Origin: Marsupella aquatica
Lineage: Eukaryota; Plantae; Marchantiophyta
Length of the DNA stretch: 64,000 nt
Reading direction: 5' to 3'
NCBI GenBank assembly: GCA_973895155.1
Contig: OZ316891.1
Location: 1,045,324 to 1,109,323, forward strand
Shown: positions 7,062 through 38,500 of the stretch, one piece after another
Position numbering within the stretch: the stretch's first letter is position 1
Layout of the letters: each line of letters starts with the position of its first letter
Made by a program: the position numbers and the translations under genes
The notes under the pieces: generated by a model
The model's input: only the letters and a program-made list of their open reading frames with translations
Database searches by the model: none
What the model was told of the DNA's origin: nothing

Positions 7062-8044
7062 GACAATGTCCCCTACTCTTACTCGAGTGTCCTTTTGATC
7101 GCAAGGGGGTCAAAATGTCATTTCGGACCCCCTCAAGGAATCTTTTTAATAAAAAATTCCATGCACCTCAGTTTCCTAAACCTATTTTCAGGCCCCTCCC
7201 TAACTCTCCTGGGAACACATCTGCAAAAAATCTCAGAAAACGGAACCGTTTGCCTTGCCAAATCGCTTATTTACCGCTGAATTTTAACGTTCTGGAAATT
7301 GAGAATATAGGGAATAAAAGTACAAGGGGCGTTTGGCCCTGCGCAAGGGGCGAAATGCCCTGTGGCACCACAAACAGGACAGCGCCTGTTTGCATCGCGC
7401 CTCACCACCCCAAGCGCCCTGCCGCTCCCCCTTCTGCCCTATCACCCTTCCTGTACCCGGCCGAACGCCCTTCCCGCGCCCTGCCAAATGGCCAAAGTTA
7501 AACCCGCTTTGACTGCCCGTATCTCGGCCGTCTGATGTCCGATCTATCTATAATTTATATGGTTGGAACGAGCGCGACGAGATCTTTCCAACAAGCCTAT
7601 GGGCGACCCAAGATCATGACTTTCGAAAATTGACCTAAATTCGTACCATCATACGACCGTCACTTTGAGTTCATGGCTATGGCTGCCTGAGCTTAATAGC
7701 CAACTTCAAAATCAAGTTAGTGGCCGCACACACCACCAAAATGTTTCCCGTTCGTTGTAAACTGATCCTCTTCCCGTTTGTAACTCCCCGGATCAAATCA
7801 ACAACAAAAATGAACAAGCAAAACCCGGATTGCGCTCACATTCAAGAAAACCGTCAAAAACCCGTCGAACACGAAGGAAATTCTTCCCACCTTCAAATTG
7901 GGCGCAATCTTCCGCCTAAACAACACAGGGACAGACCAAAGTCTGTGTTACTCCGCCTAGAAGATGATTCACACTCATATCCCGCACCGAATGCCACAAA
8001 TCGGTCACGATGAGCCCCAAGCGCTTCTCAATCTCGGTTCCCAA

Positions 8045-9080: not shown

Positions 9081-12000
9081 TCCACACTTGAAGGACAAGT
9101 GTGCTAGATCAACTTATAACTAGCTTAAACTCACCCAGATGACCGTCAGCGGAAGCGTCTTTTAGGTGAAGCTTTAGGTTGAAAATTCATATCCCGCAAG
9201 GATGCACTGATTGCACTAGCAATTAGCAAAACCAATATCACATTTTCATCTGGTCTCACCTGCAACCCACAATCAATCCATACCCACTTATATCATGAAT
9301 GGATGAATGTGACATCCAATCTTACTATAAAAGCACATTCAAACTAAAGTCTAGTTCTAGAGTAAAACCTCTAGACCCTAATTCCCAATACAGACAGAAC
9401 TGATAATGAGGACAATTAAAACTTAAAATGATGATGCTGGACAAATGTGATATTCATTTGACTCTAAGTAAAGACCAAAAAATGAAATGAAGGTGGACAA
9501 AAAATAAGGATGGGACAGAGATCATCAAAAATAGCGCACACATTTTATTGTGCAAGATTTTCTTCTTCATATCTAATACATTCAAGAAAGGGTAAGTAAC
9601 CGGCTAGCATTGTTATATTATCAAACTGTGCAACTCTCTTACCACGTAGTTTTCTATCTTTATCTGGTGTCTATATTGGCTAAATCAAGGGAAAATGAAT
9701 CTTGACAAATGCCGTGTGAATCAAAGCATTGAAAAACTTCATGGACACTACTGATTGAAGCCTTGGAGAGAAATTGTCAATGAAAGAGTTGATGGTACCT
9801 CAGTAGAAGCTGCCTGCCAATTGACAACTGCTGTAGCTTTCCCCATTGGAGCATCTGGTGTGTAGCGGATCAGTGTTAGATACTCAATCTCATGCCGGGT
9901 CTCTTGCACATTGTTTGGCCCTTCTGCTGCCTTGCACTCCAACAATCTCCCACTCAGTAATTGCATCTGCAACTTAACTTACGCTACATTAGCCATAGGG
10001 CCACCTGAAACAATTAAGGTTAAATTTCAAGATGTTCCAAATTAAAAAGCTGAACAAAAAACAAATCTATGATAGCTCTCAGTAGAGATCCGTTCAATAT
10101 TTCAAGTACTCACAAACAAGGCTGTTCTTTGCTAGTGCATTGCAATTGTAGTACATACATATCTGAAATTCTTGGAAGGTCTGACGCTATAAACAATATA
10201 AGTGAAGATAAACATATCTTTTCATTGAAGAGATGGATTATAACCGCAAGAGCCACAAAGAGAACAATGCATCTGTGAGGGCATTCCTAGAAAAGATCTA
10301 TTTACCGGGTAGCCAATCACACCGGGTACTGCTCGGAGCTCACAATTTAGACGTCCATCGGACACAGGTTTATGCACAGTAAGCATAGCAACCCCGTCAA
10401 GCAATGACCAGTGTCTTTTAACCATAGTGTGTCCCTGTTCCACACCCAACTGATTTGTTTGGCCCATCCCTGCAAGAACATTGAATTGAAAATGATAAGT
10501 CCATTCAGATGAACCTCTTTGCATGCATGGTAGCTAGCACCGTTAACTCTGTGATGGTCGTTGCAATCTGCACAATTGGCTTAGACTTTCTCAGGCTGGT
10601 TGAAGCACTGATCGACCCAATACAGAGTTCCCAGTGAGGACGGGACGAAACATTTGGCTTCATGAAAATTACTATTATCTACACTCTCCCAACTGCCCCA
10701 CCTTTACTTATAAAAGTCGTGATAACCAATCTTCTTCCTTCTGTCTGTTGCTCTTACCATAATCCCTTGCAATGCATTCTTGAGTTCTAGCAAGAAGACT
10801 TTGATGCCTGACCACGTACTCTGTTGTGATTAAAACTTTATGACCAATGCAACACCTTCTTAATGAGTTAAATTAATTTTGTTAGATGATTAAATTCCCG
10901 GATGAAATTATGCCATTTGGTAAGAACTAAGAGACCCGGAATGACTACCCCTTGGGAAAAAGCGAGTGAGAAAACAACACCAAACAAGGACCTGCCAACA
11001 TCTTCAAGTAGTGGCCTGGCTACGAGTTATGCACAAACTTACAAAGGGATGGAACCTGAACGAGAGATTCGTATTGATAATTTTTTGTCTGGTGGTATGA
11101 CAATTCTCTCAATTGTCCTTCATATACTTCAATAACTATTTCACCCCCAGAAACCCTTGCTGGCTGGATGTCCTTTATCTTGGCTCCCTTTGCCCACCTG
11201 GACATCAGTTTCAATGGGGTCAAATTATGATCTCTACTTTGCAGGAGTCGATCTACTGGATTGAAGTAGACAACGTTTTTGGAACTAGAAAAGTAATGGT
11301 TTCCCAACCTAGGCCAGGTTCCTTTGCACATACTGCTCCAACCTTTGTTGTGCAGATCGTACAACCTGTTTTCAAAAGCAACTAATCCTACATGGGAAGA
11401 GCTTAACGAGAGCCAAAAATAATGTGCCTAATCCCTTCCGTAAAAGGTCTTAACATGCTCTCTTGATAAATGCTCTCACTGATAAACTAGAGCATGATAA
11501 TAATTTATTATCATGCTCTAGTTTAGCTGACAAAAAGTCTCGTTGCCCGCCTTCAACAATCTTGGTCCAAGATTTTGGGCCCTCCAAACACTTGCTATCT
11601 TCAAAATCCTGATCATTGACTACTCATTCATTTCAGTTGATGTGGAATTCAGAAAGCTCGCTCCATCCTTTGTGTACATACCTAGTCCGGACAACAAACC
11701 GTTCCTCGTGACTACTGTAGCCCATAACTCTCATTGTAATCCAGCGCCCTTCTTGCCAAATTTTATCAGCTGGCACCAACTTGGCGACTTGAATGCCCTT
11801 GTCATCAGTAACAGGCGCTGGCATCATATGGAAAAGTTGAGGTGCAGGCATTGGAGGCGTAATTGTCATGGAGAAGTGGAGTCTAGGAGAACCACCAGGG
11901 AACTGCTGAGGAGCACCATATCACCGTCAGTATCTAGAAATTACTCAAGATCCAATCGGGTTCCTCAACCCAAGTGCGCCAGGGGACTTAGTGCAACTAC

Positions 12001-13144
12001 TTCAAAATACTCATAAAAGTTCCTGTCTGGTGGAGTGTCTTGTATCAAAATTTGTAGGGTATGATTTGTGAGGTTTGATCTGCCTCTATGCACTGCGGTG
12101 GGCAGCTAAAATAATTAAGAGAATTCTCCGAATGAGAATTAAACCTGAGGTTTTTATGGACAAGACCTAAGAGATATCACCCCATCATAAATGGACAATG
12201 TAGCAATACTCGAAGCTTCTATTCTAGTTCTAGCTTGCACTCTATATCTGGTCTTTGGTGAGTACGAAGCTCAGATGGATAGAGGGGTTTGTTCTGCCCA
12301 TCCAGTGGGCAGGCCAGTGGGTAGAGTAAGTATCCAGTTTACACCTAAAAGAAAAAAATGACCAACTGTTTTTGGAAAGACTTATTTTTGAGAAGGACAC
12401 ATCAAGTGGATTTATGAGGGGCCCCAATGGACTGTATTGTTGTTGGGTTTGACTTGTGCATCTCATGTTTGGCAAACTTGTGCATTATTTGGACAACTTT
12501 TGTATCTATGTTCACTTATTTCAAATGTTACCACATGTTCTTTGATGTCCAATCTATTACCTTCCAAAATTTGAGATTTTAATGAGATCATTTATTTCAT
12601 TTCCAGTAAGCACAAAAATGATCCAATATTACAAACCAATTGCCAATGGATGTTTAAGTTTTGTGAGGAACACCCAAGCAGATTGAATATTAGGGGCAAA
12701 TTAGGGACACTTCACTTTTGAGAATGCATGAACAACAAATTGTCACTTTAATGGCCCTTTTAGGTCAATTAGGTCTAATATAAAGCATAAATAAAACAAA
12801 GAGGGAGTAAGGGAAAAGAATCTACAACAAGTTGACACGTAGTCAGAGAAGTTTTGGAACAAACCTGTTTATATCCATGTGCCACCTGTTTATATCCATG
12901 TGCCGCCTGTTTATATCCATGTTTCATCCAGCTCCAATTCGTAAGAGAAGGCCCTGAATTCAACAGGTTTCTGTGGCACTCGATCAAAACCTCTCCGATG
13001 GATTCGGCTTTCTTTTCGGACTCTGGAATCAGGAAAAACCGTAATTTACGCAGCAAGCTTCTCTGTTCGCCTTCAACACGTACCTTTTCAGTGAATCTCA
13101 TAAGCTCCATGCGCAGGCCCTGCATTCAAATTTTAAACAATTAA

Positions 13145-13349
13145 ACCACACCTGCCACTATAAAAGTCTCATTCCATGGTTCACTACTCACCATAAAAGG
13201 AGGAACACTAGCACCTTTCTTGGAGTACTTGCCAAAAACAGCTTTTGTAGTCAGCACCTTTTGTGGAGCTCAAAGCCTATTTCTGAACTTGTACTCTTCA
13301 GAATGAGAGCTACGGGTTACCCGTAGCCCTTTATAGGGGCAGGTGTGGT
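13145..13349. mobile_element. 205-bp non-autonomous TTAA-specific element (Kolobok/piggyBac-type MITE)
   Basis: TIR ACCACACCTGCC(A/C)CTATAAA, 19/20 match; TTAA at 13141-13144 and 13350-13353. Confidence 0.9.
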
Positions 13350-13465
13350 TTAAACCGCCAGTGTCCATATAAATAGCACATGCGCCAAGACCCGGGCAGT
13401 TCATTTTCTCCCCAGATGCCCAGCGAAGGCTCAGCAAAAGGGCTCCGCAATACGTGTTGTGTAGG

Positions 13466-13631
13466 AAGTATGCCTAAACGTTTTCGCTCCTATGCATTCG
13501 TCAGGAGGGTTTGTGACACGTCCATGAGCATGAAAGCCTCTCTGCCTAGCAAGTATGCCTAAACATTTTCGCTCCTATGCATTCGTCAGGAGGGTTTGTG
13601 ACACGTCCATGAGCATGAAAGCCTCTCTGCC
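13466..13631. repeat. 85-bp direct tandem duplication, left subterminal region of the transposon
   Basis: AAGTATGCCTAAAC...GCCTCTCTGCC at 13466 and 13551, nearly identical. Confidence 0.9.
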
Positions 13632-15865
13632 GCTATGTTGCCATAGCCATGGGCCGGGGTTACAGCTGAGCTGGGCTCGGAAATCTTCTCCCTTTGCCGC
13701 GTTCCATACGGTCTTCTCCTTCTTGACTCGCCGAATCCCGCTGCCAAGTCCTAATCCCCAATACCGGCCAAGAAGTTTCGCTCACCTTGGAAATCAATGC
13801 TTCGTGTCTTTACGATGTGTAGTTGGTTTGAAGGGGAGAGGCCGAATTTGGCTAAGTGCTCTGCACGTTTTTCTATTGGCATGCGCTACAAGGTTGGTGG
13901 GAGACGGAGCATTCGAACAAGACTCCCATAAATAAACAACTCATAAATGAAGAATTGAAGCTTGCTCATATCGATCACTTCATCATAGAAAGTGCAAATC
14001 TGTCATCAAACTTCACAACTTCAAAACTTCCCAATTACTGCTGCTAATGTCTAGATCCCTACAGATGGCAGGCAAGAAACATTCATTCGAGCACTGCCTC
14101 TACTGAGATGTCCCTCACTTGCACTTGGAGACTTCCAAATTGAACCTGGGACTGGAACCATAATTCTCACATTGGACCGCAATGTGGGCTGCGGCATCAC
14201 TTAGGTCTCAAGAGAAGGTTAGTGCGATAGTTCAGTCACCGACAGCCAAGGAAAACGCAGCTCGTTGTAAAGTTGGGGCCACCCTTCAGCACAAAACTCA
14301 TCCAGCTCAACAACCACTCCACCTCACCAACTCGGTAATTTGGTGTTGTTGACATGCAGGCATAGTGAGATACGAGGTGGGTTTCTGAAATTCGGAGCTC
14401 TGATGGTACCCTGTCGACTGTGCTCTCATGAACAGCTCCCAAGTCTCATTCAATTCATGATTCCGGACAGGAAGGAAGAGCTATTATTCGTTATCTGGTG
14501 ACAATCTTCTCAGACAGTGAGAGATTATATTGATTCCAAGTCTATTATAAGGTGCAATGGCACAACCGAGCTGTCACGCTGAAGCCATTACGGGAAGATT
14601 GTGCTTGATTTCCGTCTCTGCTAATTTGCATGCACCAGTGAGCTCTTTACGTTTGCTGAATACAAGATATCACATTAATAAGGCAAGATCGGGCTTCAAC
14701 CTTTCATTGATACCGGACACAGAACCATCAGCCATAGTGGACACAAGCCATCGAGACAACAGGATCGGCTTCACAGAACTCTGCGAACCTTCTTTGTCTA
14801 TCCCCTCAATGAAGCACAAGCTCTTCGAACAAGGAAAATTTTGGCAATGCTTCTCCTTCAGTTGGACACTTGAAAACGCAGAGGACCCAAAGAGTGAAAG
14901 CGATGCATTTATCGGTGATAAAGAGGACTTCACTACGGCTGAAGCTCGGGGGCGATTGAGTTGCGGTCATTGGTTTGCACAAAATGTACACAAGCATTGT
15001 TTGCAACAGTTTTTAGACGGACCCCGCCTCTAGCAGCCTTCAAGCACCTGCACATCCCAATGCACTTTGGCAAATTCATCGTCTACAACCTGGGGAAATG
15101 ATCGATAAACCTCATTCAAACTGGGCTGAACGGAAACGCTCCATGCAAGTATGTCGATTCAAACAAAGTCCATGAAAAGTTTTAATGTAGCTTCGGGATG
15201 ATGTGAGTGTACATTATGCAAAATTCACAACATCCAATTGAGGTCCGTAGTTGTGTCCTGTCTTGCGTGATGGAGGTCCAAGAAAGTATTCATTACTTGA
15301 TCTAGAAGTGAAAGACCAACGTATTGAGTCTTCTCACATTGAGGCTACAAAAGTATGCACTTTCAGGGAGGTTACAAACAAATCCGCCCTCGGCTTCAAA
15401 ATGACGGGAGTTGAAAGGGAACTAGCCTCCTTTGTCTCGTCCTAGGAGCTCACATTATGACCATGTGTTTTGTAGAACCTGCCAAAGATCTGGCCACTGA
15501 CGCGCAGCTTTGCCGAGTGAAACAACAAAGATTTTTTTCAGACCTTGCCATTTACAGTACTAGGGTACCATACTGTATCTGGATTTGCTTTGACGGAAGG
15601 TATGAAACAAACTATCCGCTTAGAGCATATTTGGGAATGGTGTGGGGCTCCTTTTTTCTTACTTGCTGCAATTATTATCCTCAGTGTATTCTTATGGAGT
15701 ACATCTTGCTTCAGACATTGTATTCATGGACCTGGTGTGAACTCGTGCATTTTCATTCATAACTGCATTCTTGCAAGCATGCCTTTTGACTTACTAGACA
15801 AATACAAGGACATCTAATTCACAAACTCTTGTTTGTTGTATTGTTAGGTTGCTAGAGTAGGACAA

Positions 15866-18800
15866 ATGGTCCGTCCACCGGCTGCAATTGATTATCACCA
15901 AGTTGGAGGCAGTCTTCGAGTAAGGCTTCCTGGAAGTCATATACGTAGATACCATGCCTTACAGGGTGCCCTCAAAATGTCTCATGGGAGGATTATGGCT
16001 TGGCTCATGGATGGTATGTCCATGCAAATATCAGCTGCTATTAGTGCTCATGACGGACACGATGAAGAAGTAGGGGATGTAATCGCATTTGAGGGTCCTG
16101 ATGACTTTGGATGGATAAATAATCATCACCTTGCTAATGACGAGGACTTGGGAGCATTTGGGGTGATTGCTGAGGTACTTTTAATAACAATTTTCATTCT
16201 ACTTTGAACTTGCTTTGCAGATTTTAATTTAATTGGAGTAGACCTCTTTCACCATCTCTCCTTTTCTATGTGTTTAAAAGCTTGGGTTATCCAAATTTTT
16301 AGAGGTTTTATCTTTGCTGGTACATCATGTTTTAGTATTGTTAACCTATGTTTGTATTTATTTATTGCAGCCATTTTGTGGTGCATCATCATCCCTTCCA
16401 AACGATGACGATTCCAATTTTGATGCGGCATCACCTTCACATGATGATCAAGTTCATGCATACTTCAACACGAGTGTATTTGACCATATTCAGTCTGGGG
16501 AGGAGGATGCAGAGCACATTTTTGACTCCAACATAGAAATGGAAGATGGTTCTATGATATCCAATTCCCAGGTAACTTAGAAGCTGAGCTTTTTAAAAAA
16601 AAATTCTTTGTGCTACATTTGTTCAATACATTAATTTTATGTACCCTAACCCTAAACAGAAGTCAAATGAGGATGGACCCATTCGTTTGCTGGATGTGGC
16701 TGATCCAACAGCATTTGGATTAGACGAAATGGTTTTCATGGATTCTGGATTTGAAGAGAATCCAACTCAGGTATTATATTATTGCACATTCTTTTACTTG
16801 TCATTTGCATCAATTCATAGTCTCTTGTAGTTCTTCATTGTGAATACTACCTTTTTTGTTAACTTACTAATTAAATATTGTATGTTAATTTTTGTAGGCA
16901 TCTAGTTCTTCTGAGCAAATAGAAGTTGACTGCAGTTTGGATTCAGAGTATGAGCCATCGTCTCAAGAAACTACAACCGAGTTAGACCCTGAGAGTCTGG
17001 TGGAGTATGCTTTTTGGCAAAAGAGTAAGGTCCATGAATTTTTCCAGGAGTTTTGTGTGAAATGTCGTATTGAAGGTTGTGACGGTAGGTACTCGGTTGA
17101 GGACATTGTGACACACCATCAGTTGTGGATATTGAAGCTAAAGTGCCCAATAGGGCATGCACAATCTTTCATGACCGGAGAAAATGAACTTTACAGAGGT
17201 ATGTCATCTCCTTAATTTTCTTATATACTTATGTCTTTTTGTACCTAAATGACTTAATATTGTATGTAACAAAAAGTTTCTAATTTTATTTAATTTATGA
17301 ATACAGGTGTTCCTGCAATCACTGGATTGATTTACCACTTTGCTCTTTCTGCTGGTCTAACACACAACATGATAAGTGAACTCTTCTCTCACATTCAAAT
17401 CCATGTTCCAAGAAATACACATTGGTTCCGATTTCAAAATGGAGCCCGAAGAGACATTGGATGGATTGGAGCAGTATTGCAAGTTTGGAATAGTAAGAAA
17501 CAAAGGTTGCAACGAGGCCTAGCAGAAAGAGACGGTATATATGAGTCTTACTTAAATTAGTGCACAAGCATGTATTATTTACATTGAGTAATGAATTTCT
17601 CATTTTACTGGATATCAAGTTGTTAGAGCATGCTTGTAAATGATGGTTACTAAACATTATTTTGTGGTTTATGATGATTGTAGATTCCACTCCATTGATT
17701 CTATATGTGGATTGTCGTTGGGACTCATCACGTTCTGGATATCATGGCACTGTTCCCGTGATAGACATGGCTACTGGTAAGATAGTAGAGCTTGTAACAA
17801 TTGACCGGGTTGAGGCTGGGAGTTCAGGCGCTATTGAGGCAATTGGTGTTCGTCGTGCCTTGGAACATCTTCAGAATGTTGGGATTGCAATTAATGAGGT
17901 TGTTCACGATGATAACAACGTTGTTAATAATATTCTTTGTGAATTCAATATTGATAACCAAAAGGATTTGTGGCACAAATGCAAAAATCTATTGAAGCAG
18001 TTTAACAAAGAGTTAGCAAATGTGAAAGAAACAGCGCCTGCTAGTGGGATTGATGGTGCAACATCCTTGGAGGAATTGGGTAGATTCACTGTCCGAGTGT
18101 TGTCAGATTGGTGTAAGAACCAAAATTTGAGACATACGGGTAATAAGACAGAGTTGGTACATCGCATTGGAAGACATAGAGGATTGCCGGAGGAGGACAT
18201 CACATTGCGCACCAGGAGGCAGTTGAAGTATCCAGAATTGACAGAGAAGCAACTTGGTGATAAATTGAAGAGTTGGTTTTACTATTGTTGTTGCAATGCA
18301 AAAGAAAGGTAGGATGATAACTATGGTATTTATTTGCATTTACATGGCTTCAATGAATGTTACTATTGGATTTAATTGAGCTGACTTAATGCTTGAGTTG
18401 AATTTTAATGACTATTTACAGGGGAAATGATGATGCTGCCATGTTAGCTAGGGAGATAATCACTGCAGCTGATCACTGGGCTGGTAACCATGAACCTTGC
18501 AAAAGTTTTCTACCTGAGCGCAAGTGTTGTGAGGAAGGTGCAATTTATAGTCCATACTATGTTGCGGGTAAGTTAAATCCTACTATCAACTATACCTGGT
18601 TGTAAGTAGTTAGGACATAAATAAATGTTTGGGTTGTTATGTAATCTTTTAATATTTCTAATACTTTTTTAAAATGGATACTTTTGGATTTTACAGGGGG
18701 CCCTACACATAGAGCTCTAAAGCAATGGTTGTTTAAGAATGTCACTACTGGCAATGCTCGCTTTTACACTAGAGCCCGAGCAAACTTCCTTAGTGAAACA

Positions 18801-19058
18801 TTTCATGGCAACATCAACAAATATGCTATGAAGAGGATCCATTTTGCCATGACCCACGAAGCCCGCATGGCATGTGCTGCAATGTGCTGGAATGAGAACA
18901 TCGGTCGGGAGGTGTTACGAGTTAGAACACGACAACCTAGTAATACTTGCACTCGTCAACGTACATCCAGAGTTCGTGACCTTGTTCCTAGAAGCATAAG
19001 ATGGAAGAAAGATGTGGCTCGTATCATATTTGAAAGAGGTGTAGACTATGATTCATGA
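15866..19058 (+). CDS. Kolobok-like DDE transposase, 760 aa, 8 exons (15866-16174, 16371-16571, 16660-16770, 16898-17198, 17307-17534, 17684-18308, 18422-18567, 18697-19058)
   Basis: All introns GT-AG with consistent phases (2283 nt, open frame). Candidate catalytic residues in YVDCRWDS, VVHDDN and LSETFHG; also QKDLWHKCK, NKYAMKR..EARMACAAMCWNEN, a Cys/His cluster (CVKC..C..CPIGH) and a SAP-like motif (FTVRVLSDWCKNQNLRHTGNKTELVHRI). Confidence 0.88.
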
Positions 19059-20191
19059 ACACTTCATAAATTTATCTTATTTCTTGCATTATCTTTTCTT
19101 GCTTTAAGTGTACCATATTTCCATGTCATCAACTTGCATTATTTATTTTTTGCTCAATAAGTCCTTTTTTGTACGTTTTACTCAAAAACTCCCCAAACTG
19201 AATCCCATTGAATGTGTACAAAATGGATTTATTATTGATGACCACTATGTTAGAAGTGAAGAGCTTGTCAATAGCTTTCTATTGGGCCTAACATTAGGTG
19301 TAATAGAGTGCACGTTTCTTAGATATCCAATTTTGAAACAAGTGGTCCAAGAGCCTGCCCTTGCAAAAATGAATTTTTTTGAAAGTTCTCAAGTGGAACC
19401 CAAACTCACTAAGTAGGGTAAGTAGCACCCCCTGATTCCGAATATGAACTCAGTTTTATGAGATCATGTCCCCTTACCTTAATATCCGTGTCTACTAGTA
19501 AGATAGTAGAGCCATGGCCCAAGTATCCTTCACTTGCTCTGCCTATGAAGAGTAGCATGCATGGCATGGCATTACAGAAGAACCTTACTAGTAGATATAT
19601 AAATTTAAATATTTTTCTAGAATTTGACAATACTCCAAAGGGGAATTGAACCCCTCATGCTGCCATCCAGTAGGAGTTCCAACCCAGAGAAGGGGGAAGG
19701 AGGCACAAGCCAAAGAAACACATGGAAAGAGAGTAGCACAAAGAACCCATACAATGACAATACTAGTAATAAACAAATAAATAAACATAAAACACAAGTG
19801 AAACTCAAAAAGTAAATGTGGAAAAGAGGATGGTATTTGCCTTGCAACTCCCAAGTTAGGGCTCTACATTGCAGTTGGGAGAAGGAGGCACATGATGCCA
19901 AACAAAAACAATAAAATAGTATAGTAGAACAAAGAAAGCATGGAACAAGAAGTAACTATGGATGAAAAGATAACCACACAACCTTTGAAAACTACAGTCA
20001 TACACCAACATGGTGTTTGCTTAGCAGCTCCTAGGTGGCCTGCACTTGCAGTTGGGAAACGAAGGGAGGCACATGGCACATGCAAACCAAAGACCCAAAA
20101 AATGGTAGAACAAATAACCCAAGCATGGAAAAATAACTCAAGTGAGAAGAACAATGGTGAAAAGAAAAACAAAAAAAAACAACCTCCAAAC

Positions 20192-20948
20192 CTAAAACCG
20201 GAAACCCACATGTTGTTCACCTGGTAGCTCCCAAGTGGACTGCACTGTAGTTGTGACCGCTGCCAGGAAGGGTGTTCTATCCGCAAAACTAGCAACATGT
20301 GCTAGTTTGTGGTACACAATGTACCTTTGTCTGCGAGGGACAGTTTCAGTGTATGCCCATGCAGCACACATATGAAAAGCCTGAGCTGTCGCGGGAGAAA
20401 GAGCCTGGGCAAAGTTGAGGGCATCAAGATTTTCGTCTATTGCTGTGCAAAAATCTGGGAACCTAGCAACAATGTCTACATGCCTCAAAAGTCGGAATTT
20501 CCGACGTCCTGGTGGAGGGACAGGCCATGACAAGCGGTATATGCCATTTCCATAGGAGATCAATTCAGCTGGTCTGTTTTGATGCTCGACGCTCCTACAA
20601 CATGGCCAATTGAAATTCAAGATTCATGCACTTATAAACCTTAGAAAAGTTGCTCATGATGCTAGTTATTGTCAATGAATACATCTTATTTTATAAATGG
20701 TATATTTAAACAAGACAAAACAACTATTGTGCAAGAAAGTGCATGATGGAAAGTAAATTCTACACAAACTTATAAATTTTGTGCATGTAAGACCCAATTA
20801 CATGATTGAGAAAGAAAAGGGGCAATTTCTATGCATACAAACTTACAAGCCAAAAGCAAAGCAGACATGAGCAAAAATAGTTTGAAGGGGAAGTAGCAAG
20901 TTTAGGGTTTTTTGTTTGCAAATATATAATTTACCTGGGATTATTCAT
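20192..20948 (-). CDS. KolX-like / P2X7 intracellular-domain-like accessory protein, 138 aa, 2 coding exons (20935-20948, 20192-20594)
   Basis: ATG AAT AAT CCC AG|gtaa...tgtag|G AGC joins in frame. C-terminus RQRYIVYHKL..DRTPFLAAVTTTVQSTWELPGEQHVGFRF resembles the recalled KolX/P2X7-tail pattern R-Y-AYR...R..LP.C.V..IR..FP...Y.GF; tail-to-tail with the transposase. Confidence 0.7.
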
Positions 20949-22349
20949 GCTGAGTGACTGGAAGGTCGATGAACAATGACAACAACTGCACAGCAGAAGG
21001 ATGCATAGCATAAAAATGCAATGAATAAGAGAGTGGGTTGCATAAGTGATTTGAGCATGCCCTTTCTTTGATAGTCCTCCTAAAAAAAGAGTAAACTCAA
21101 GGGGACATAATGATTATGAGAATTTTATTTGGTTTTGGATGCAGTAATCGAATGCACCGTCTTGGCAGGGCAGGGCAGTGAAGGGCAGGGAAGGGAACTA
21201 GGGAAGGGAAGGGAAACAATGAGAAGAGGTCGGGAGGACAAACCAAAAAACTCCTCGAGTTTGTAGTAGAGAAGGAGATCTGCTCTATTTCTGAGAAGGG
21301 TGATTGAAGCAGTGGAAGAGTTCGTGTGGCCAGCTAATTAATGTTCAAGGTTCCTGCTTTTCGTCATCTACTTGCAATGTAGTCTCTAGTCTGCTGTTGT
21401 TGATGGGCGAGTCTCTAGGTACATTGCAGGCATTTCTTGGGTTCCGAGGCTTCTTCTTTTGGAGCTGCAAAATTTAGATCTTTCCCAGTGAAAGCTGAAA
21501 ACGTATGGAGTGTTCCGGGAAAGTGCAGGACTCGTTCGATGGGAACTAAGGCAAGGGAAAGGGAGATCCAAAGATGGCTGAAGTTTCAAAGATAAGCTAG
21601 CGTAGCGGGAGGGGGAGGCCGTTTCTACTGCATCACGGCGCAACGGGAGTAGGAGGGGAAAGCAAATCCACCTACTAGCAATCAAGGCCGGGGCTCAATG
21701 AATGGTGAAACCGGATCAGCAGTGGCACCACTACAGAGAAAGCCCAATTAGCAAATTGAGCGGATTTGTTCTTGACATGTGGGACAAGTTGTTCTGAACG
21801 AGAAATAGAAACTATGGCATTCCAATTTGACTCACTCTCAGAACTGCAGGATAGGACTAAAGCCCGAGCTCGTTCAGTATGATAATCCACCGTGCCAAGC
21901 AAATTCGTTGAGTAAGAAATGTGAAAGAAACTGAAGGCCAAGCTCAATCAGTATGACAATCCACCTTGCCAACCAAACTCGTAGAGTAAGAAATGTGAAG
22001 GAAACTCCTACTTCTCTGCTGACAACTTGCGCTGAACATGTGAAATCTCTGTGAGTCAGTGGCTCTGTTGATGTATATATAGAGCAGAATTAGGTGCGTA
22101 GTAGAAGGAGAATTGCACGAGTTTGCTACTGAACAAGTATCTGCAGTAACATTGGTTCATAAGTAGTTGCTTATGATTCATTACGATCCATCCTGCACTT
22201 GCGCAGCATGGGCGGAGGAAAGGGACATAAAATTTGCCTAATTTTCTTTAGCAGCATGGGTTCGAATCAGGATAAATGGTCGACTTGATGTGGGCTGAAC
22301 ACTTGCACGACTCTAGGTTGCTAAGCACTAGAGAGCAAGTCTGCTCCTG

Positions 22350-22512
22350 ACACTCGCATAGCATGGGCGGAGTGTTGCTGCAAAAGGATCTCTCGTGCCC
22401 TCCGCAAACACTCACGCAGCATGGGCGGAGTGTTGCTGCAGAAGGATCTCTCGCGCCCTCTGCAAACACTCGCACAGCATGATCGACTGAACTGTCTCGC
22501 GCCCTCCGCAAA
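22350..22512. repeat. 58-bp tandem repeat (~2.8 units), right subterminal region of the transposon
   Basis: ACACTC..GCATGGGCGGAGTGTTGCTGCA.AAGGATCTCTCG.GCCCTC.GCAA units begin at 22350, 22408 and 22466 (third degenerate). Confidence 0.85.
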
Positions 22513-25500
22513 TGTCGTAAGGACACCAAAAGCCATTTCCCTCACACCTGACCCGGCCAAAAAGCGCCGGCCCCACTGACTGGCCAAAAACTATCGAGGA
22601 TGCACGGAGCTGGACATGCCCTATATTAAGAAACCTGGTGGATCCAGGTTTTGGCGGTGGACAGTGGCGGTTTAAGCATAAGCAACCATCAATGGGTCGG
22701 ATTTAACCAGTCATAGTAGAAAGCTATGTGCAGCCTAAGGAATCACCTTGCCACAGGTCAGTTCGAAAACTGTACATAAAATGGAAGATTGTTCTTCAAG
22801 CCAAATCTGAATTTAGTGTACACGTTACAATCTTCATCTCTCTCTCAAGGTGCACCCATTGAGTGTCCGAAAACTATCAGGCAAGAAAGCAAACGAGGTT
22901 AAGCTCGAGGCCTCCTATTGCTGTATGGTTGAAATCACCTCAAAACGATAAAGCGTTTGTTTAAGGGCAGCAATATGCCCTAATTTTATCAGTGAAATTC
23001 CTCTCCTCCAATTGACCAAAATCTTCCTATTACCTTTGTGGATAGCTCCGCTTGCAAGGAGAATCCTTCATTCCATGTAACCTCGTGCCGAGTGCATGGA
23101 ACCGCGGCGGTGGTGAGGTTCAGGTCAGCGCATTTTCTCAATGGCGATACCTTGAGAAAGTAACGACTTCTACGCCCGAACTTAGAAGTGGGATTCACAT
23201 TTGCGGCACCTAATACCACCAAGTTAACCTGCAAATATAGAAACTCTCATACTTCAATCCTCTCCCCAGATATAGGTGGGTTTCAACGCCCATCTCTCGA
23301 ATGAATGTCGGGCAAATGACTGTCTTACGTTCATGAAAAGACTTCTCATGTCGTGTTAGACAGGAAGACGAGTCTCTCTACGTCACAATATAACAATTTC
23401 CCAGGACTGCGAAACACGGTCTTAAGTTCATACCTGCACTGTCTGCCTCTGGGAACGTACTTGTCCCAGCTGCAGCTGATTCACTGGATAACGCAATTCG
23501 GGATCAGCATTCGGAGTCGGAGGGGCTGCTCTAGTTGGCTCTGATCCTCTGTACAAAGAGCCTGCATGCTCATACACCGTGCCAAAGGTAGCCTGCCAAG
23601 GTGACAATGAAATTCAGTTGCGTAGTAATTCTTTGCTACAAGACAGTCCATGTCACAGCTTCGTTTCTCATTTTGACAGAATTAGTCCTTAGTACATTTT
23701 ATGCGTCCTCCATTTTATGCTAGGATCAGTACACAACCGTATTTCTTCACCAACTGAAGTCTTGCCGTAAAACTGAGATATTCATGCTTTAATTTGTAGG
23801 TGCTGTCTTGGTGAGTAAAGTCTTCGAAGTACTGTTTTTGGATTCGCTCAATCGAAAAAGATTTCCAATCCAAACTTGAACAAGTTAATCCTTCAATTTT
23901 AATAAACGCAACACCTCCTGCAATTGCTAGTAAGGACATTGTCCTGCTAAGTTCAAACAGAGTAATGCATTGGTGGAACTAGTTATTCACCAGCCATTGC
24001 TGACAAGTATCACCAAAGCTGGTCTGCGGCTTTGCATTGGGTTCCAGATCGCTGTCAGGGTCGTCATGATCCAGAACTGTTCCCATGCAGAAGAATGTAT
24101 TTGCCCTGTAGGCAGTGGGAGAGAGGTGCCGTGAGTGCCACAATAGGTCAATGTCGTATGTGGGGACAACAAATGGCCGTGGACCTCCTTTGGCCTCCTT
24201 TTCCTTAGCCAGTTTTATGAGGTGAAGGAATCCTCGGTACCTCGCCAGAGCCACCTTCAGATATTTGTCGTCAGACATCCATGGCCGGCATACCTGCAGA
24301 ATGATGTGAGTTCCACCAAAATTAGAAGGGTCGAATCCTTAACTATCAAACATTCAAGTCTCCATATCTCGACTGTCCCTTGCAAGTTCTGAGTTTACTT
24401 ACCAGAATTTCCCCTGCCTCACGGAGTTACTACAGATTCATTGGGTTTAGTGTCAACCTATTCCTACTCGCAAACTAGCAATGTGGCTTCTTCTTCGATT
24501 CGGTCGTTACCGCAGTCGTTCCATTCTCTAGCTCTGGGCTTTCATTCCGGACCCAAGTGCAGTTTCTCTGGTCCGCGTTCGATCTTAGTGGACTCTCACT
24601 CATATCCTTCACTTTAACAAATCTAACTTTCCGCGGTACATACATTCATGAACGTTTGAGTTATTTGTAACCTTCAACACGAGGGTTCATATTAAATATC
24701 CTGAGTAACAACTAACCTGGTAATAAAACGAGGTCTGCCTGTCAATTGCCGCAATTAGATCATAACCAATGGTAGCATGAAACTTCTGCTGCTGTTGCCA
24801 AGCCGCATCATCACCGGCTCTGATGAAATCGTAAGGTACATCTGGGTAAGCAGTAGTCCAGACTTGGGTGGCGACAATTGTTATGTTTGAACCTGGAGGA
24901 CCAACATCGACAAGCTTTCCAAAAAGTTGCAGGCAATCCTTTGAATATTGCACCTGCAGAGAAAAATAAATACAATCATGCTATTAGTACGTTCGGTACT
25001 GAAAACGATAGTCGTTCTAAATCAACTGGCCGGCCTTGCAGACCTCCAAATATGTTCAACAAGCTTTCCAAAAAGTTGCAGGCAATCCATTCAATATTGC
25101 ACCTGCACAGAAAACAGATCAATGAACTGGTGACCTTCTCCAAATATGCTCTCCACGAGCAAACTAAGGCTTTCCCATGAGGAAGCCTTGTAATCGTTTA
25201 GAGAAAACCCTGAACGCCATCTTACATGCTCCAGTGTACACAAACAGTCAATGGAGAGCTCTGGTGAGCGAGAAACAAAAGAGATTCAGAATCTTACTGG
25301 ATCGAGCTTATGGTAATGCCACACCCATGCACAATCAAGGGGCGGTTGCAGGGCATCACTGGGCGTGTATTTGCTCGCAAGGGGAAGCCAGCAGTTCAAA
25401 TATCTGCACCCAAAGCAGTCACCAAGGTCACTTTAGCAGCCGCAATTCCAATGAATTAAGTGTCCAGCTTTCTTGCCTGGATAGCGAGGAACCAAATGGG

Positions 25501-26497
25501 ATGGACCTGATCTTCAAATCTGATTGTCGCACAAGTCAACATTGAACAATGTGATATAAACACTTCATGGAGAGGATCTCAATTGGAAAACTCACATCCT
25601 TGGACATGGAGATCGAATTGCCGAACTTACCTAGCAACAGCACATTCAAGCACCTGACGATCCACAGTGCCCAAAAATCTGAGTTCCTGCTTAGTCGCAG
25701 CGACCAAATCTATGCTAATCTGCACCTGCTTGGCCTTCTCCCATTCCATTGAGGCCTGCCCTGGTGACGCCATCAGGCTTGATCGTCCTTAATAATCCAC
25801 CCTCCGCTCAGTCTTAATTTGCACCATGACGGAGCGAATTTCTCTTATAGTTCTCTTACATGCAGCTTACAGTGCCAAACTTTTGCTACAAGTCAGCGTG
25901 AGCACACTCTTCAAATTGAAAGCAGGGAATAGGAAAGAGAAATTTCCCTCCCAAGACTACGAAATTGACGACAATTACATGCTGGTAAAGAATCAACTGC
26001 CTTCTTCCTCTGATACTCTCTTCACTCCACTCCACCCAATAGTTTCAGCTCTACACTCCGCAGATCGCTCATGTAGGCGATGAAAATCATGAATGACGTC
26101 TGCGAGCACGCCAACGGGCCGCTCAAATTTCAGCTGTCAAATGAGTGTGCACATCGCCACACAGGTGAGAGCTGGTCAAGTCAACCAACGTTTCTGAAGC
26201 ACTCTCTGGTAAAATTCCAGAAGAATCGTTAGATCCCGCGTTAGATGCATCTCCATGCATATAACGCAGCCAAATTCTCAAGTCGAATTTACCGAGCTTT
26301 ATCGTCTGTCACGCCGAATCATTGGAAACTATGTTCGTGGCTCGTTATCGACAACCGAAGGAAACGCATGACAGACACGACACGAGCTGCAGATTCGTCG
26401 CTATGAGTAAATCCAGAACCAAACACCGGAGAAGGACTCTAATTTCCAGGCAGGTCCTTCATGGATGGATTGTCAATAGCTCACACTGAACACCATG

Positions 26498-27501
26498 AGT
26501 TAAATCTATGTCAAGTTAATGTTCTCCCACTTTTCCCCCTTAGTTAAATCTATGTCAAGTTAATGCTCTCCCACTTTCCCTGGGCGCCGTACACTTCACG
26601 TCCCAATCCCCGATGCTGCTGCCCGCTCCGGCCCAAGTTTGGCAGAACATAAACCAATATTCTACGATTTAACTCATGAGCTCCGGCCTGATCAACTTTG
26701 CGCCATCGACTTCAGGTTTATGTTTTGGCACCCAAAACTTTTTGTCGGCATTGACTTTGTGCCATCAATTTTTTGGAAAGAAGTGTTGCCAAAACATAAA
26801 ACATCACTCCATAGAGAATAAGTATTTGGCACAACATAAACCAAGACTATCAATCAAGACTCTCAACCAAAGTATTAGGCTCCCGTTGAATGCTTAGACT
26901 CTATTACAAAATAGGTATGACTCCATTGGAAAGAAGTGTTGCCAGAACATAAACCCTGACTCCATCGAGAAGAAGCATTTGGCAAAACATCTACCAAGAC
27001 TCTAGAATGATGACTCTTAACCAAAATACTAGGTTGTGCTTAGACACTTAGATTCTATTACCAAACAAGCATGACTCCCTTGGAAATATGTGTTGCCAAA
27101 ATATTAATAATCACAACTCCATAGAGAATAAGTATTTGGCACAACATAAACCAAGACACTATAAATCATGACTCTTAACCAAAGTACTAGGTTTGCCCTG
27201 AACACTTAGACTCTATTGGAAAGAAGTGTTACCAAACATAAACCAAAATTCCACAAGGAAGAAATCGATGACACAAACTTAAGTCGTCAGGCCGGAGCGA
27301 GCGAAGGTGCCAAAACATAAACCCAAAGTTGATGACCCAAAGTTTATCGGGCTGGTCCAGGAGCGCATGACAAAATGGTAGAGTATTGGTTTATGTTTTG
27401 CCAAACTTGGGCCAGAGCGGGCAGCAACATCGGGGACAGGGATGGGCAGTGTACTGCATCCCGGGAAAGTGGGGGAGCATTAACTTGACGTAGATTTAAC
27501 T
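26498..27501. mobile_element. ~1-kb non-coding foldback/MULE-like element with long imperfect TIRs and internal direct repeats
   Basis: 26542-~26735 is the imperfect reverse complement of ~27305-27501; the first 44 bp of the left arm are duplicated (26498, 26542); the interior consists of GCCAAAACATAAACC-type subrepeats; no clear TSD. Confidence 0.75.
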
Positions 27502-27689
27502 TGGGGTCACGGAACGCAAAGCCCTTTCATGACGGCACAAGCTCTATGCCCGTGCATGCACGTCGCAAGGAGGGAGTTGACCCTGGGCATTTATGGGGCA
27601 GGGAATACACATTTTTCTCATCAATAGTCACTAAAAACAACCAAGAGTGCATATTTCTTTCATCAATGGTCAGTGAAAACAGCCGGTCT

Positions 27690-27878
27690 AATTTAACAAC
27701 AGCTGTGAATCTTTCCCAACCAATTGAATCCAATGGCTGTGGATCTTTCCCGCCCAGGAGCTTTTTTATATTGGAATAAAAAGTCAAATTTAACAACAGC
27801 TGTGAATCTTTCCCAGCCAATTGAATCCAATGGCTGTGGATCTTTCCCACCCGGCCAGGAGCTTTTTTGTATTGGAAT
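27690..27878. repeat. 97-bp tandem duplication
   Basis: AATTTAACAACAGCTGTGAATCTTTCCC...ATTGGAAT at 27690 and 27787. Confidence 0.88.
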
Positions 27879-30800
27879 GAAAGACCAAAAAATGGCGGGA
27901 TCCCTTAATATAGCTGTAGATTAGGGTGTGACTGCCAAAGTAAGCCATAAGAACCATCTGCTGGTTTGCGTCTGAGTTTGGGTTCTCTGTTAATGTGACA
28001 TAAACCACAACAATGAACAAGGAAATGATAAACCATTGCAAGATCTTAGAGACTTACTTATTTTCTGAAATAGGTTTGTGGAATCCTTCAGGAGGTCATC
28101 TGTGCCCATTGAAATTCTGCCCAAGCAGAACACAAACAGGAGTTTAATGAAAAAGTGCAAGGAAGAGAGAAGCTCATCCCAAATGTTTAATTGCTTGGCT
28201 AACATAGGGGGTTTGCTCTAGCATATTGCCAATTAAAACTAAAAAATATTTCAATATATGAATATCAAGCTATTACAATTGAACTCAATTTTTGCAAAAT
28301 GTGGTCAATGGAAGTTTCAAAGACCAACCTTGTTATCTGGGCTTCAATTAACAAAGCACAAACAAAAGCTATGGCTTAACCTAGCTTCAACAGTAGACTC
28401 AAGCAGTGACTCTGGGATGGCAGAGCACTTGCAGTGGGACCCAGGGGCCCTCACTCAATAGAAAATAACCAAACCCGCTTGTAAACGACGCCCCTTATAA
28501 TAAGCTTCAATATTTTATGTGGTACTTACAAAAATTTATTAATAACTAAAATTAATAATTTAATCCTATTTATGAAAGTTAAGCCCGTATGGACCAAGAG
28601 GTTTCATTTGCCCATCCCATGGACTGTGGTCAACACACAATGCTTCACTTTACACACAAAGTTTTCATTGTCAGGCTACCTTTAGGAGGGCACTCCACTT
28701 TTGAGAAGGATGCCCCAAGTAGTTTTTCCATGTGTCTCGACCAACTGTAAAAAGTTAATTTTCAGCAAGCTTGTGCATTTATTTGGACAACTTTTGGATC
28801 TATGTTTCAGCTCAAAAGTTTCCAGCATGTCCTCTGATGTCCAATCTAGTTTTCCATTTTTTCTTTAAATCTTTATTCAATGGAGAACCAAAGAAAGAAC
28901 AAAAACCAGCCTGGGAGGAGAAGGCAGGAAAGAACAAGAGCAATTAAGGGGGCAATAAAAGGAGCACACCAGTGAAGATGAAGGGCAACCTCCACCCTGA
29001 CCCCGATGTCCAATCTAATTACCTGACAAAGTTTCATTTTTCTGAAACCATTTTCTCCATTGCCAATGAGTGCAACTATGGTCAAATATTATAAACTAAC
29101 TGCCAATGGACACTTCACTTTGTGCAGAACGCTCTCAGTACTTACTTCAGCAGGAGCACCAACTTTACCACTTTAAGGAAATTTGCTTCACTTTTGTTAA
29201 GGATGCCCTGAGTAATTTACATGATTGAGCCACAACTTGCCACCATGCATATTATTCAATGGAAACCTGTTTACATGTCACATATGAATCAAAACTGTAA
29301 AGAGTGCTATCCGAGCACATTTTGATGTTTGAGTCAGTCTATCCCAGCTTTGGAAATCCATGATTGGGGGCTTCACATGAAACCCCTCGTCCACCCAAGC
29401 TTTACTTTCTCCTATTTATAGAACCCTTCTGGTCATTTTATAATACTCTAAATTTACTATTATATGGCCTGTACGGCAGAAAGAATTTTGTTTGTGATTG
29501 CACATTGTTATTTTGCCCTTTGGTATAAACCAAAAAAAATACTCAGAACCAAAATTCACAAAACCGTCACCCCTTGGACCCCACCTTATGTAATCAAAGA
29601 TATGGGTGCGAACAAATGTAGATGGGTTTTTACATTGTTTGTGCTATCATTACATCTATTCTAAATGTTTTAAGAATAAAGTTATGGGTTCACTCTTAGT
29701 GGGCCCAAAAGTGCCACACCATAGCAATCTAGTGACTAAGAAACTTTGTTTACTATAGGTAAACATTAAACAATGTATTTGTCCCAATCATGGTGGGACA
29801 TGTCGGCCTTCGCGATACATGGCGTGCCCATATTAATTGCCCTTGAGAAAGCTACTCGAGAAGCTTGTTTAGAAGTAACACATTTAGTCATTATGACCAG
29901 ACACGCCATTTCTAAAAAATAGACAATATATCTGAAAAATGAGTTACAAAACAATTGTGCCTTTTGCACCAGGCTCCATACTAAGGGTTAGGGCTTGGAC
30001 ACTATGAGCACACTGCCTAATAAACATGGATACCATAGTCTCTTCAGTCCCTAAGACAGGCATTGGAACTTGTTTAAAAACTTCAACAGCTAGCCATGCC
30101 AAAAGATTGCATAACCAAAGGTCTAGTACTACATTGCAAACAAAACAGTTGGCATCACTACCACAAACTGTATCTTCAATATGACAAACAACATATACAT
30201 GATCTTTGACAGTACGATTATTTTTTATTAGACTGAGAGGCAAAATATATATTCAAAACTACACACACACACACACACACATGATGTACCATTCAACTTG
30301 TAAAGTAGGGAAAGAAAAGGAATGGGGAATGATATTTTCCAAAAATTACTCATCTGCATTGCCAAGATACCCGGGGTCCTCACTTCTTTTCTCCCAACCC
30401 CATTGTGCATAGAGAAGTTTGGTATTTTCTAATTCAATTCGGCAAAAGACTTTTAAATTTTGTGTTGAAGAAAACTAGGGGTGTTTTAATCCAATTTTGA
30501 CAATTATAAGACCTGTAGAATTGTTGATGATTGTTTTTAATCACATGCAGGTGGGTACAACAATGAAAGAAGGGGATTGTACCTGTGATTGTAAAAGGTA
30601 TTTTGGGGGGATTCATCTAAACGCGTGATAGTTTTGGGGGTAAACTTTTGCAAAAATGGCACATCTTATGCTCATGAAACCCCTGGGGCCCGCCCTGAGG
30701 CTATTTTTTCTCTGATTTTGTTTGGCATTTGAATAAAAACTTGTTTCAGGAATTTGGCAGACATTGTTTGGTCTGTCCGGCATTCAAATGAAAACATATT

Positions 30801-35500: not shown

Positions 35501-38500
35501 ATAACACTCCTTGTAATCCAGCGTCCTTCTTGTCTAACTTTATTGGCCGGCACCAACTTGGCGACTTGAAGGCCCTTGTCATCAGTAACAGGCGCTGGCA
35601 GCATACGGAAAATGTGAGGTGCAGGCGTTGGAGGCGTAATTGTCATGGAGAAGTGAAGTTTGGGAGGACCATCATGGAACTGTAGCACCATATCATTGTT
35701 GGTATCAACAAATTACCAAATCTTGATGCAATCGGGTTTTTCAACCCAAGCCAGTGCATTTAGTGCAACGACTTCACAACACTCGTAAAACTTCCTATCT
35801 GGTCGAGTGTACTCCGTTTTTTTTTTAACTCACTCACTTGTGTTGCAAAGATATTCCAGGAGGTCCCCTCTTGCAGGCATAGTTAAGCATGTAGCTGCGG
35901 ACCATTACATATCACATTATTAAGCGGTAGAACTTTATTTTCTCATTATTTTCTACTTTGATTCTAGTTTTCGGGGCTTGCATTTCACCTCTTCTTTTGA
36001 GTTTTGAATTGTCCTCCCTGGACCTATCCTGCTTTTACTCCATTGTAGATTGTTTGGGCCCTATTTAGTACATTGGTACTTGCAGGTGTAACATTAAAAA
36101 AAAAAAAAAATTAAGAGGAAAGTACGCGAAAAGAATGTAGACCAAGCCTACGTCTCGAGAAGTCTTGGAACAAACCCTTTTGAAACTAAGCGCCATGGAG
36201 ACCCATTTCGTAAGAGAAAGCCCTGAAGTGGAATTCAATAGGTCTCTTTGCCACTCGATGGAAACCTCTCCGATGGATTCGGCTTTCTTAGTGGACTCTG
36301 ACATCATCAAAGCCTTTAACTTATGCAGCAAGCTTCTCTGTTCGCCATCAACGCGTACTCTTTCAGTGAAAGTCATAAGTTCCATGCGTAGGCCCTGCGT
36401 TCAAATTTTGAACAAGTAAGCATAAGATACCATCAATTAGTCAAGAAGAATTCAACAATTCGTACTAGAAAGCTCTGTGCGGCCTCACATTGTCACAGGT
36501 TAGTTCGAAAACTGTACATAAAACAAAATTCTTCAAGCTAAATCTGAATTTAGTGTAAAGGTTAACAATCTTCATCTCTCTATCCTTGTGCACGCTGTAC
36601 ACGCGACAAAATCAAAGAAGATGTGTACATGATTGAGTGACCGAAAACTATCACGCACGAAAACTAAAGAGGTTCTACGTGCCTATTGCTAAATGGTTGG
36701 AATCAACTCAAAACCTTAAAGCGGTTACGGGCAGCAATATCCCATAATATTAACAGTTAAATTTCTCTCCTCCAATTGACCAAAATCTTCCTATTACCTT
36801 TGTGGATAGCTCCGCTTCAAAGGAGAATCCTTCATTCCATGTAACCTCGTGTTCAGTGGAAGCTGAGGAACAAGCAACCGTGGCTGTGGTGAGCTTCAGG
36901 TCAGGGCATTTTCTCAATGGCGACACCTTGAGAAAGTAACGACTTCTACGCCCGGACTTTGGTGTGGGATGAACATTTGCGGCACCTAATACCACCAAGT
37001 TAACCTGCAAAGATATATAGAAACTCTCATACTTTAATCCTCTCCCCAGCTATAGTGGGTTTCAACGCTCATCTCCCGAATGCGTGTCGGGCAAATGACT
37101 GTCCTGGGTTCATCAAAAGACTTCTCATGACGTGTTAGAACAGAAAGGCGAGTCTCTCTACAATGCAAAAAAGCAGTTTCACACGACTGTGAAACACCGT
37201 CTGAAGTTCATACCTGCACTGTCTGCCTCTGGGATCGTACTTGTCCCAGCTGCAGCTGATTCACTGGATAACGCAATTCGGGATCAGCATTCGGAGTCGG
37301 AGGGGCTGCTCTAGTTGGCTCTGATCCTCTGTACAAAGAGCCTGCATGCTCATACACCGTGCCAAACGTAGCCTGCCAAGGTGACAATGACATTCAGTTG
37401 CGTAGTTATTTTTCGGTACAAGATACGAGTCAATGTCACCGCTTCGTTTCTCAATTTTCACAGAATTAGCCCTTACATTTTATTCGTCCTCCATTTTATT
37501 CTAGGATCAGTTATGTAATTTTAATTCTTCACCAACTGAAGTCTTGCCGTAAAGCTGAGATATTCATGCTTTAATTTGTAGGTGCTGCCTTGGTGAGTAA
37601 ACTCTTCGAAGTACTGTTGTTTGGATTCGCTCATTGATCGGAAAGATTTCCCACCAGGATTTGAACGAGTTAATCCTCCAGGTTTATAAACGCAACACCT
37701 ACTGCAATTGTTAATAAGAACATTTTTCCTGCTATGTTCAAAAAGAGTAATGCATGGTGAAACTAGTTACCCACCAGCCATTGCTGACAAGTATCAACAA
37801 AGCTGGTCTGCAACTTTGCACCGGCCTCCCGATTGCTGTCAGAGTCGTCATGATCCAGAACTGTTCCCATGCAAACGACTGTATCTGCTCGGTAGGCAGT
37901 GGGAAAGAGCTGGTGCGAGTGCCACAATAGGTCGATGTCGTAAGTGGGGACAACAAACGGCCGTGGACCACCTTGGGCCTCCTTTTCCTTCGCCAGTTTT
38001 ATGAGGTGAAGGAATCCTCGGTACCTAGCCAGAGCCACCTGCAGATATACGTCTTCATACATCCATGGCCGGCATACCTGCAGATGTGAGTTCCACTTAA
38101 ATTAGAAGGGTCTAATCCTTGATCAAAAAATCAAGTCGAGTTTCCCTTTCAAGTTCTGAGTTACCAGAATTTCCCCTGCCTCACGGAGTTACTGCAGATT
38201 TCATTGGGTTTGGTGACAACCTATTCCTACGCGCAAACTAGCAATGTGGCTTCTTCTTTGTTTCAGTCGTTCCAATCTCTAGTTCTGGGCTTTCGTTTCG
38301 AACTCAAGTGCATTTTCTCTGGTCCGCGTTCGAATTCAGTGGACTTTCATTTCCTTCACTTCAACAAATCTAACTTCGAAAGACCATGACCTAACAACAA
38401 CCACTTTCCGCCGTCGTTTAAGTTATTTGTAATTTTCAACACCAGGATTCATAATTGTCCTGAGTAACAACTGACCTGGTAATAAAAAGAAGTCTGCCTT

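Follow-up and report, generated by a model that had tools for sequence, protein, structure and literature searches.

A cysteine-poor accessory gene, probably related to KolX, in a TTAA-inserting Kolobok-type transposon of the liverwort Marsupella aquatica

The 64,000-nt stretch of Marsupella aquatica DNA analysed here (the window) holds on its minus strand a gene for a glycine-rich-domain protein (GRDP-like; 9085..25790, ends approximate), recognised by PF07173 matches, a weak C2_GRDP match and an exon-by-exon match to a paralogue on both sides of an insertion. The two GRDP-like genes stand in tandem: the second, at ~33000-40500 and also on the minus strand, is 68-83% identical to the first, introns included. 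A MITE and a Kolobok-type element sit together in an intron of the first gene, ~20 nt from its inferred 3′ splice site. Within the paralogue, 36203-36419 corresponds to 12934-13144, and 36417-38831 to 22673-25063. Where it aligns to both flanks of the insertion, this copy has one tetranucleotide (GTAA, 36416..36419), which is the empty site. The first GRDP-like copy also bears small deletions and a local duplication near 24900-25130 and, with its insertions, may be damaged. The MITE (13145..13349, 205 bp) has 20-bp inverted ends beginning ACC and TTAA flanks, and lies at the same insertion site as the larger element. It is present in high copy, many contigs having loose ends at 13141 and 13353, and was probably moved by a related transposase.

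The Kolobok-type element (13354-22671, 9,318 bp) holds a transposase gene and an accessory gene, both with open frames. Its 14-bp terminal inverted repeats (left, 13354..13367, plus strand, beginning AC; right, 22658..22671, minus strand) are identical at 13/14 positions. A TTAA target-site duplication flanks both ends, the left copy (13350..13353) being common to the MITE and the element, and the right copy (22672..22675) corresponding to the single tetranucleotide of the empty site. After TTAA the termini read AC ... GT and do not follow the published Kolobok rule, 5′-RR ... YY-3′; TTAA with AC..GT ends reads the same as a TA duplication with AA..TT ends, and the two are indistinguishable. 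As its ends break the RR..YY rule, the element is named Kolobok-type here and not a canonical Kolobok member. Contigs of four runs from two studies contain many divergent copies over 15340-21679, where the summed depth is not a copy number.

The first gene of the element (15866..19058, plus strand) encodes a Kolobok-type DDE transposase of 760 aa in an open frame of eight exons (15866-16174, 16371-16571, 16660-16770, 16898-17198, 17307-17534, 17684-18308, 18422-18567 and 18697-19058), all introns being GT-AG. The catalytic residues are present (D393, D459, D478-L-W-H481 as DxxH, and E674). Between DxxH and the last E lies a zinc-finger motif, H-W-A-G-N-H615-E-P-C618 with a later Cys, which by eye resembles H-W-R-G-D-H-S-Q-C of Kolobok_1_CCri. 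Again by eye, the order and spacing of the motifs fit the Kolobok rows seen in Data S5 of PMC9587614. A SAP domain (18081-18173, exon 6) is inserted after DxxH and before the zinc finger; it is common to the Riccia and JGI homologues and is found in none of the Data S5 rows read (PMC9587614).

Searching with a transposase exon returned eight Riccia sorocarpa and two JGI proteins, and the transposase is 33-45% identical to these ten homologues; PF20700 gives weak matches in 3/5 transposase homologues. The JGI relatives are P0006 and P0010, and P0006 represents 18 cluster members on contigs of 1-8 kb. Among the variants listed for the transposase exons, 6/16 are synonymous; they mostly fall at sites where the window copy departs from the majority, and we therefore make no selection claim for this gene. 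A piggyBac-type transposase was considered, given the TTAA target, and rejected on motifs: the exon scans returned no piggyBac family, and DxxH is the signature of the Kolobok/hAT/MuDR/P group (PMC9587614).

The accessory (KolX-like) gene lies on the minus strand and converges on the transposase gene, whose end is at 19058. Exon 1 (20935..20948, 14 nt) carries the ATG and a GT donor and encodes MNNP plus 2 nt. It is followed by a GT..AG intron of 340 nt (20595..20934) and by exon 2 (20192..20594), which encodes a predicted three-stranded sheet, helices and a F/H-V-G-F/Y tail that falls in the register of the ballast C-terminus. The product has 138 aa before the stop, with Cys at 54 and 81 alone. 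A sequence-only reading of this DNA had proposed a spliced, Cys-poor, 138-aa ORF with this C-terminus, convergent with the transposase, and its model proved exact. The splice model is supported at the sequence level. Divergent copies lose their match at 20600, just beyond the acceptor, in 3/4 runs among the loose ends listed; their contig depth drops across the intron and climbs back over exon 1; and the Riccia homologues start MPRNPK, resembling MNNPR in the window. There may be an additional exon upstream of exon 1. About three degenerate ~185-nt repeats occupy 19689-20256, between the two stop codons, and the last one reaches into the accessory ORF at its 3′ end.

The copies and homologues indicate that the accessory ORF is a real gene, linked to the transposase and under purifying selection among copies. 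This follows from copies in which exon 2 is retained while the intron has diverged, from an excess of synonymous changes and from homologues in liverworts. Indeed, 10/15 of the exon 2 variants among the variants listed are synonymous, against 29% expected (p 0.002); these 15 belong to 40 listed variants, with 315 further ones beyond them. A profile of 11 homologues, built with the window protein left out and run against the 2,147 six-frame ORFs of the window, picked the accessory frame (E 5e-25; runner-up E 0.59). Because this profile picks out that frame alone, the ORF is more than a chance reading frame.

A HMMER search of 1.84 billion proteins gave 12 matches to the accessory protein. Nine are short true homologues, three from R. 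sorocarpa, one from Calypogeia fissa and five from other assemblies; the three others, giant proteins of 5,000-7,300 aa (titin-like, Mollicutes and an ENA protein), were dropped as chance hits. A profile search added six further R. sorocarpa homologues. A word-seeded search with exon 2 found no homologue among 20 candidates, and no related locus turned up in the metagenome and viral contigs scanned. In the Atlas, unnamed clusters matched the accessory protein at 0.94, the first of them eukaryotic, and a search with the Calypogeia accessory protein gave no match. For 2/8 R. sorocarpa transposase genes, an accessory homologue occupies the next locus tag and accession (R1sor_027006/027007 and R1sor_003870/003869; chance ~1.5e-5), and an adjacent annotated accessory partner is absent for the other six. 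The proteins of R. sorocarpa and C. fissa (e.g. CAM6082157.1) thus belong to the same transposase and accessory families, and they are annotated merely as hypothetical or SAP-domain proteins; the R. sorocarpa genome paper makes no mention of Kolobok. The sequence-only reading had looked to other copies and related elements for co-occurrence, and this was found: exon 2 is kept in the copies, and homologues occur in liverworts, two of them beside a transposase gene. The accessory family was also compared with the transposase as a possible fragment of it, which was rejected (hhalign probability 0.06).

KolX is a known partner of Kolobok transposases (PMC9587614) and matches residues 476-595 of P2X7, with seven zinc Cys (Kojima and Bao 2022, PMC9587614). 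The last motif of the ballast domain is (L/I/V)PSC(C/S)x3IRx2(F/Y)Px5Y(S/T)G, and R546, A549, Y550 and Y/F553 are conserved (Rump et al. 2020, PMC7016195). We scored the published ballast motifs with BLOSUM62 on 16 family sequences, against shuffles and 142 control windows. They fit best at the same C-terminal site in 15/16 sequences, motif 3 without gaps. The joint score has a shuffle p <= 0.013 in 12/16 and lies above all 142 control windows in 11/16, the family members being related, and so not independent tests, and the controls coming mostly from the three very long chance-hit proteins. For the window copy alone p is 0.045. Motif 3 by itself scores 13-28 in the family and is not above the controls (maximum 34); several ballast-motif residues are substituted, and the upstream helix can be aligned in two registers. 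By eye, the protein is in register with the piggyBac-2_GrCh KolX of Data S6 (PMC9587614). Other copies have P115 and R100, nearer to the ballast motif. The window copy has L and H instead, and by this difference it may have decayed in part.

An alignment-based model of the accessory protein (pLDDT 80.5, pTM 0.76) shows three strands followed by helices. Compared with 48,161 chains, it places rat P2X7 (6u9v) at rank 37 with Z 3.6, tied with dozens of unrelated helical domains. In this match residues 57-138 face P2X7 508-593, with 59 aligned and an rmsd of 2.4 Å, the lowest of 50 rows; although weak, it has value because the target and range had been named beforehand. A single-sequence model (pLDDT 60) yielded nothing useful in the fold comparison. 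P2X7 was absent from Foldseek on PDB and BFVD and from a second-look alignment, so that the Foldseek comparison with the P2X7 intracellular domain proposed by the sequence-only reading came back negative. At the sequence level, two PDB profile searches at E 10 gave no P2X7 chain, Pfam gave no family, and hence no DNA-binding family, for 15/15 accessory members, and the window protein by itself had no Pfam or PDB sequence match.

Taken together, we consider it likely that the accessory protein descends from KolX/P2X7-ballast stock and is homologous to it in the C-terminal half. From the model, the kinship likely covers the helical C-terminal half only (~57-138), the predicted N-terminal sheet matching nothing in KolX. 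The earlier proposal of a divergent, Cys-poor KolX homologue therefore stands for a conserved, Cys-poor accessory gene of likely KolX kinship, but only for this half of the protein. The similarity it anticipated is mixed: no significant profile match, a structural match at low Z, and an ORF that is conserved in related elements.

In the KolX/ballast ZCD (PTHR36981), as described, seven to eight Cys grouped in three clusters coordinate zinc. None of the 15 rows of our alignment carries Cys at C572 or C573, and the predicted three-stranded sheet stands where the zinc-cluster motifs would be, motifs 1 and 2 being absent. Judging from these residues, zinc binding by the accessory protein is very unlikely, and having lost the zinc ligands, the protein is not filed as a canonical KolX/ZCD. 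It nevertheless resembles KolX in context, and probably in fold. The best conserved residues are Y99 and A103 (15/15), W126 (14), and R111, P115 and G135 (13 each). Set against the P2X7/Nanor ballast (ZCD; PMC7016195, 6u9v), the family has like residues at the A549/Y550, P570, I577, F581 and G590 positions, but the window protein is a free-standing one of 138 aa, with no dinuclear zinc site and with GDP contacts mostly changed.

The closest described arrangement is that of the Kol0 lineage (Kolobok-1_XT type, PMC9587614), in which KolX is likewise a second gene beside a Kolobok-type DDE transposase, with TTAA duplication and a C-terminal motif probably in the same register. In contrast to Kol0 KolX, the window protein lacks the zinc cysteines and has the predicted N-terminal three-stranded sheet. 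Kol0 is recorded from animals (PMC9587614), whereas the window element is in a land plant. The transposases differ too, the window one having the SAP insert and D-S-S-R-S-G-Y-H where the Kol0 rows seen have D-S/T-P-G-H/F after the first D (PMC9587614), and the AC..GT termini are unlike the RR..YY of Kolobok. A C-terminal KolX-like protein without most zinc Cys is also known from a few piggyBac families (PMC9587614). Of these, piggyBac-2_GrCh and piggyBac-14_PI (Data S6, PMC9587614) share a likeness over R-V-Q-I-P-R-C ... W-P ... Y-M-G-F. However, they ride piggyBac elements and retain the Cys of the L/I-P-x-C motif (PMC9587614), while this Cys is gone in 15/15 rows of the window family, in which the loop before the motif is also shorter.

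The reading that we favour, and hold to be reasonably probable, is that the accessory ORF, conserved as the second gene of a Kolobok-type transposon that inserts into TTAA, encodes a reduced, zinc-free KolX that serves as a protein cofactor of the transposase. The transposase would cut the element and paste it into TTAA; the accessory protein would dock on the transposase, or on the transposase-end complex, with no need of metal or nucleotide. The docking surfaces would be the R-x-x-V-Y helix, the R-T-x-L-P-x-x-x-E-x-A-I-K-x-T-W helix and the F-V-G-F/Y tail, and the sheet predicted at the N-terminus would take over from the zinc cluster as a structural cap. By analogy with MURB (MULE) and the accessory proteins of Harbinger and CACTA elements, for which accessory-protein binding in transposition is described, we suggest, with some reserve, that binding to the transposase or its end complex may occur through the conserved helices and tail.

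Other roles and origins have to be weighed against this one. A KolX-derived protein might be directed at the host, for example by countering silencing of the element or by targeting chromatin on its behalf, a role for which VANC-type proteins offer an analogy. The accessory protein does have its own gene with a long upstream region (20949-22657), and the CpG depletion of the element (observed/expected 0.46-0.64) would fit a methylated element, but the host flanks are equally CpG-poor (0.40-0.71). Nanor, a likely domesticated KolX, occurs without a transposase (PMC9587614). The homologues are mostly acidic (pI 4.6-6.1 in 9/10 computed; the window protein has pI 9.4) and no DNA-binding family was found, so that we regard a host-directed role as rather unlikely. 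An unrelated, lineage-specific accessory protein, whose likeness to KolX/P2X7 is convergent or due to chance, would agree with the lack of a significant profile or Foldseek match, the low Z, the unmatched N-terminal sheet and the total lack of Cys at the aligned zinc positions. Yet the motif register, the C-terminal position, the 508-593 range and the Kolobok context converge on a target named in advance, which makes this origin unlikely.

A third reading keeps the nucleotide and drops the metal: a zinc-free ballast domain still binding GDP/GTP would tie transposition to nucleotide state. The likely R546 equivalent is Arg in 10/15 rows (in one of two possible registers) and the R578 equivalent is Lys in 13/15, and both positions are retained by the ballast domains of invertebrates (PMC7016195). 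On the other hand, the R574 position is Glu in 13/15, Phe/Tyr prevail at H547, the K583 position is unconserved and the window copy itself has Gln at R578; moreover, GDP binding is unshown for non-mammalian ballast domains (PMC7016195). From these substitutions GDP binding by the accessory protein is doubtful, and a nucleotide-sensing role quite improbable. Finally, the long arms of the element contain no recognisable genes (0/67 ORFs matched Pfam, hence no third gene), and capture of a host-gene fragment or a neutral passenger is thereby conceivable. It is, however, highly improbable and already largely refuted by the purifying selection among copies, the exon-limited conservation and the linkage in Riccia to the same transposase family.

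The preferred reading, a reduced KolX serving the transposase, bears on two questions, the function of KolX and the role of the P2X7 ballast. Since the gene is kept under selection while every zinc ligand is lost, the helical pair and the C-terminal tail would be the part that the transposon needs. With Cys-poor KolX-like proteins of piggyBac elements already in print, two points are new here: the host is a land plant, and the zinc cluster has been lost altogether. The curated distribution of Kolobok covers animals, fungi, chlorophytes, rhodophytes and protists (PMC9587614), and the window element extends it to land plants. In the literature, no curated land-plant Kolobok or KolX appeared among the papers listed. 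A survey covering 1,007 plant genomes included Kolobok in its screen, and the recently active clusters it reports belong to seven other superfamilies only; in a paper on spinach, Kolobok is named a single time, among 67 leftover elements. We tentatively propose that a liverwort-type Kolobok lineage, unrecognised in land plants, carries a minimal ballast, that is, a zinc-free and nucleotide-free helical core with a new beta-sheet cap. If true, the ancestral job of the P2X7 tail domain would be protein docking on a transposase. As both of its frames are open and its ends are defined, the element is a ready test system for KolX function, and if the minimal-ballast proposal is true its compact two-gene design would allow a direct test in Marchantia or yeast.

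Other features of the window lie outside the element. A high-copy element at 26500-27900 has long inverted arms (26537-26670 / 27373-27506) and internal repeats of 154-158 nt, and the frames of a Copia-type LTR retrotransposon (gag, integrase and reverse transcriptase) are found at 3103-7109 on the minus strand. The window also holds TLDc, ORC5 and OSCP genes and, at 56630-58756 on the plus strand, an intronless frame of 709 aa in which a flavin monooxygenase is joined to DUF6314.
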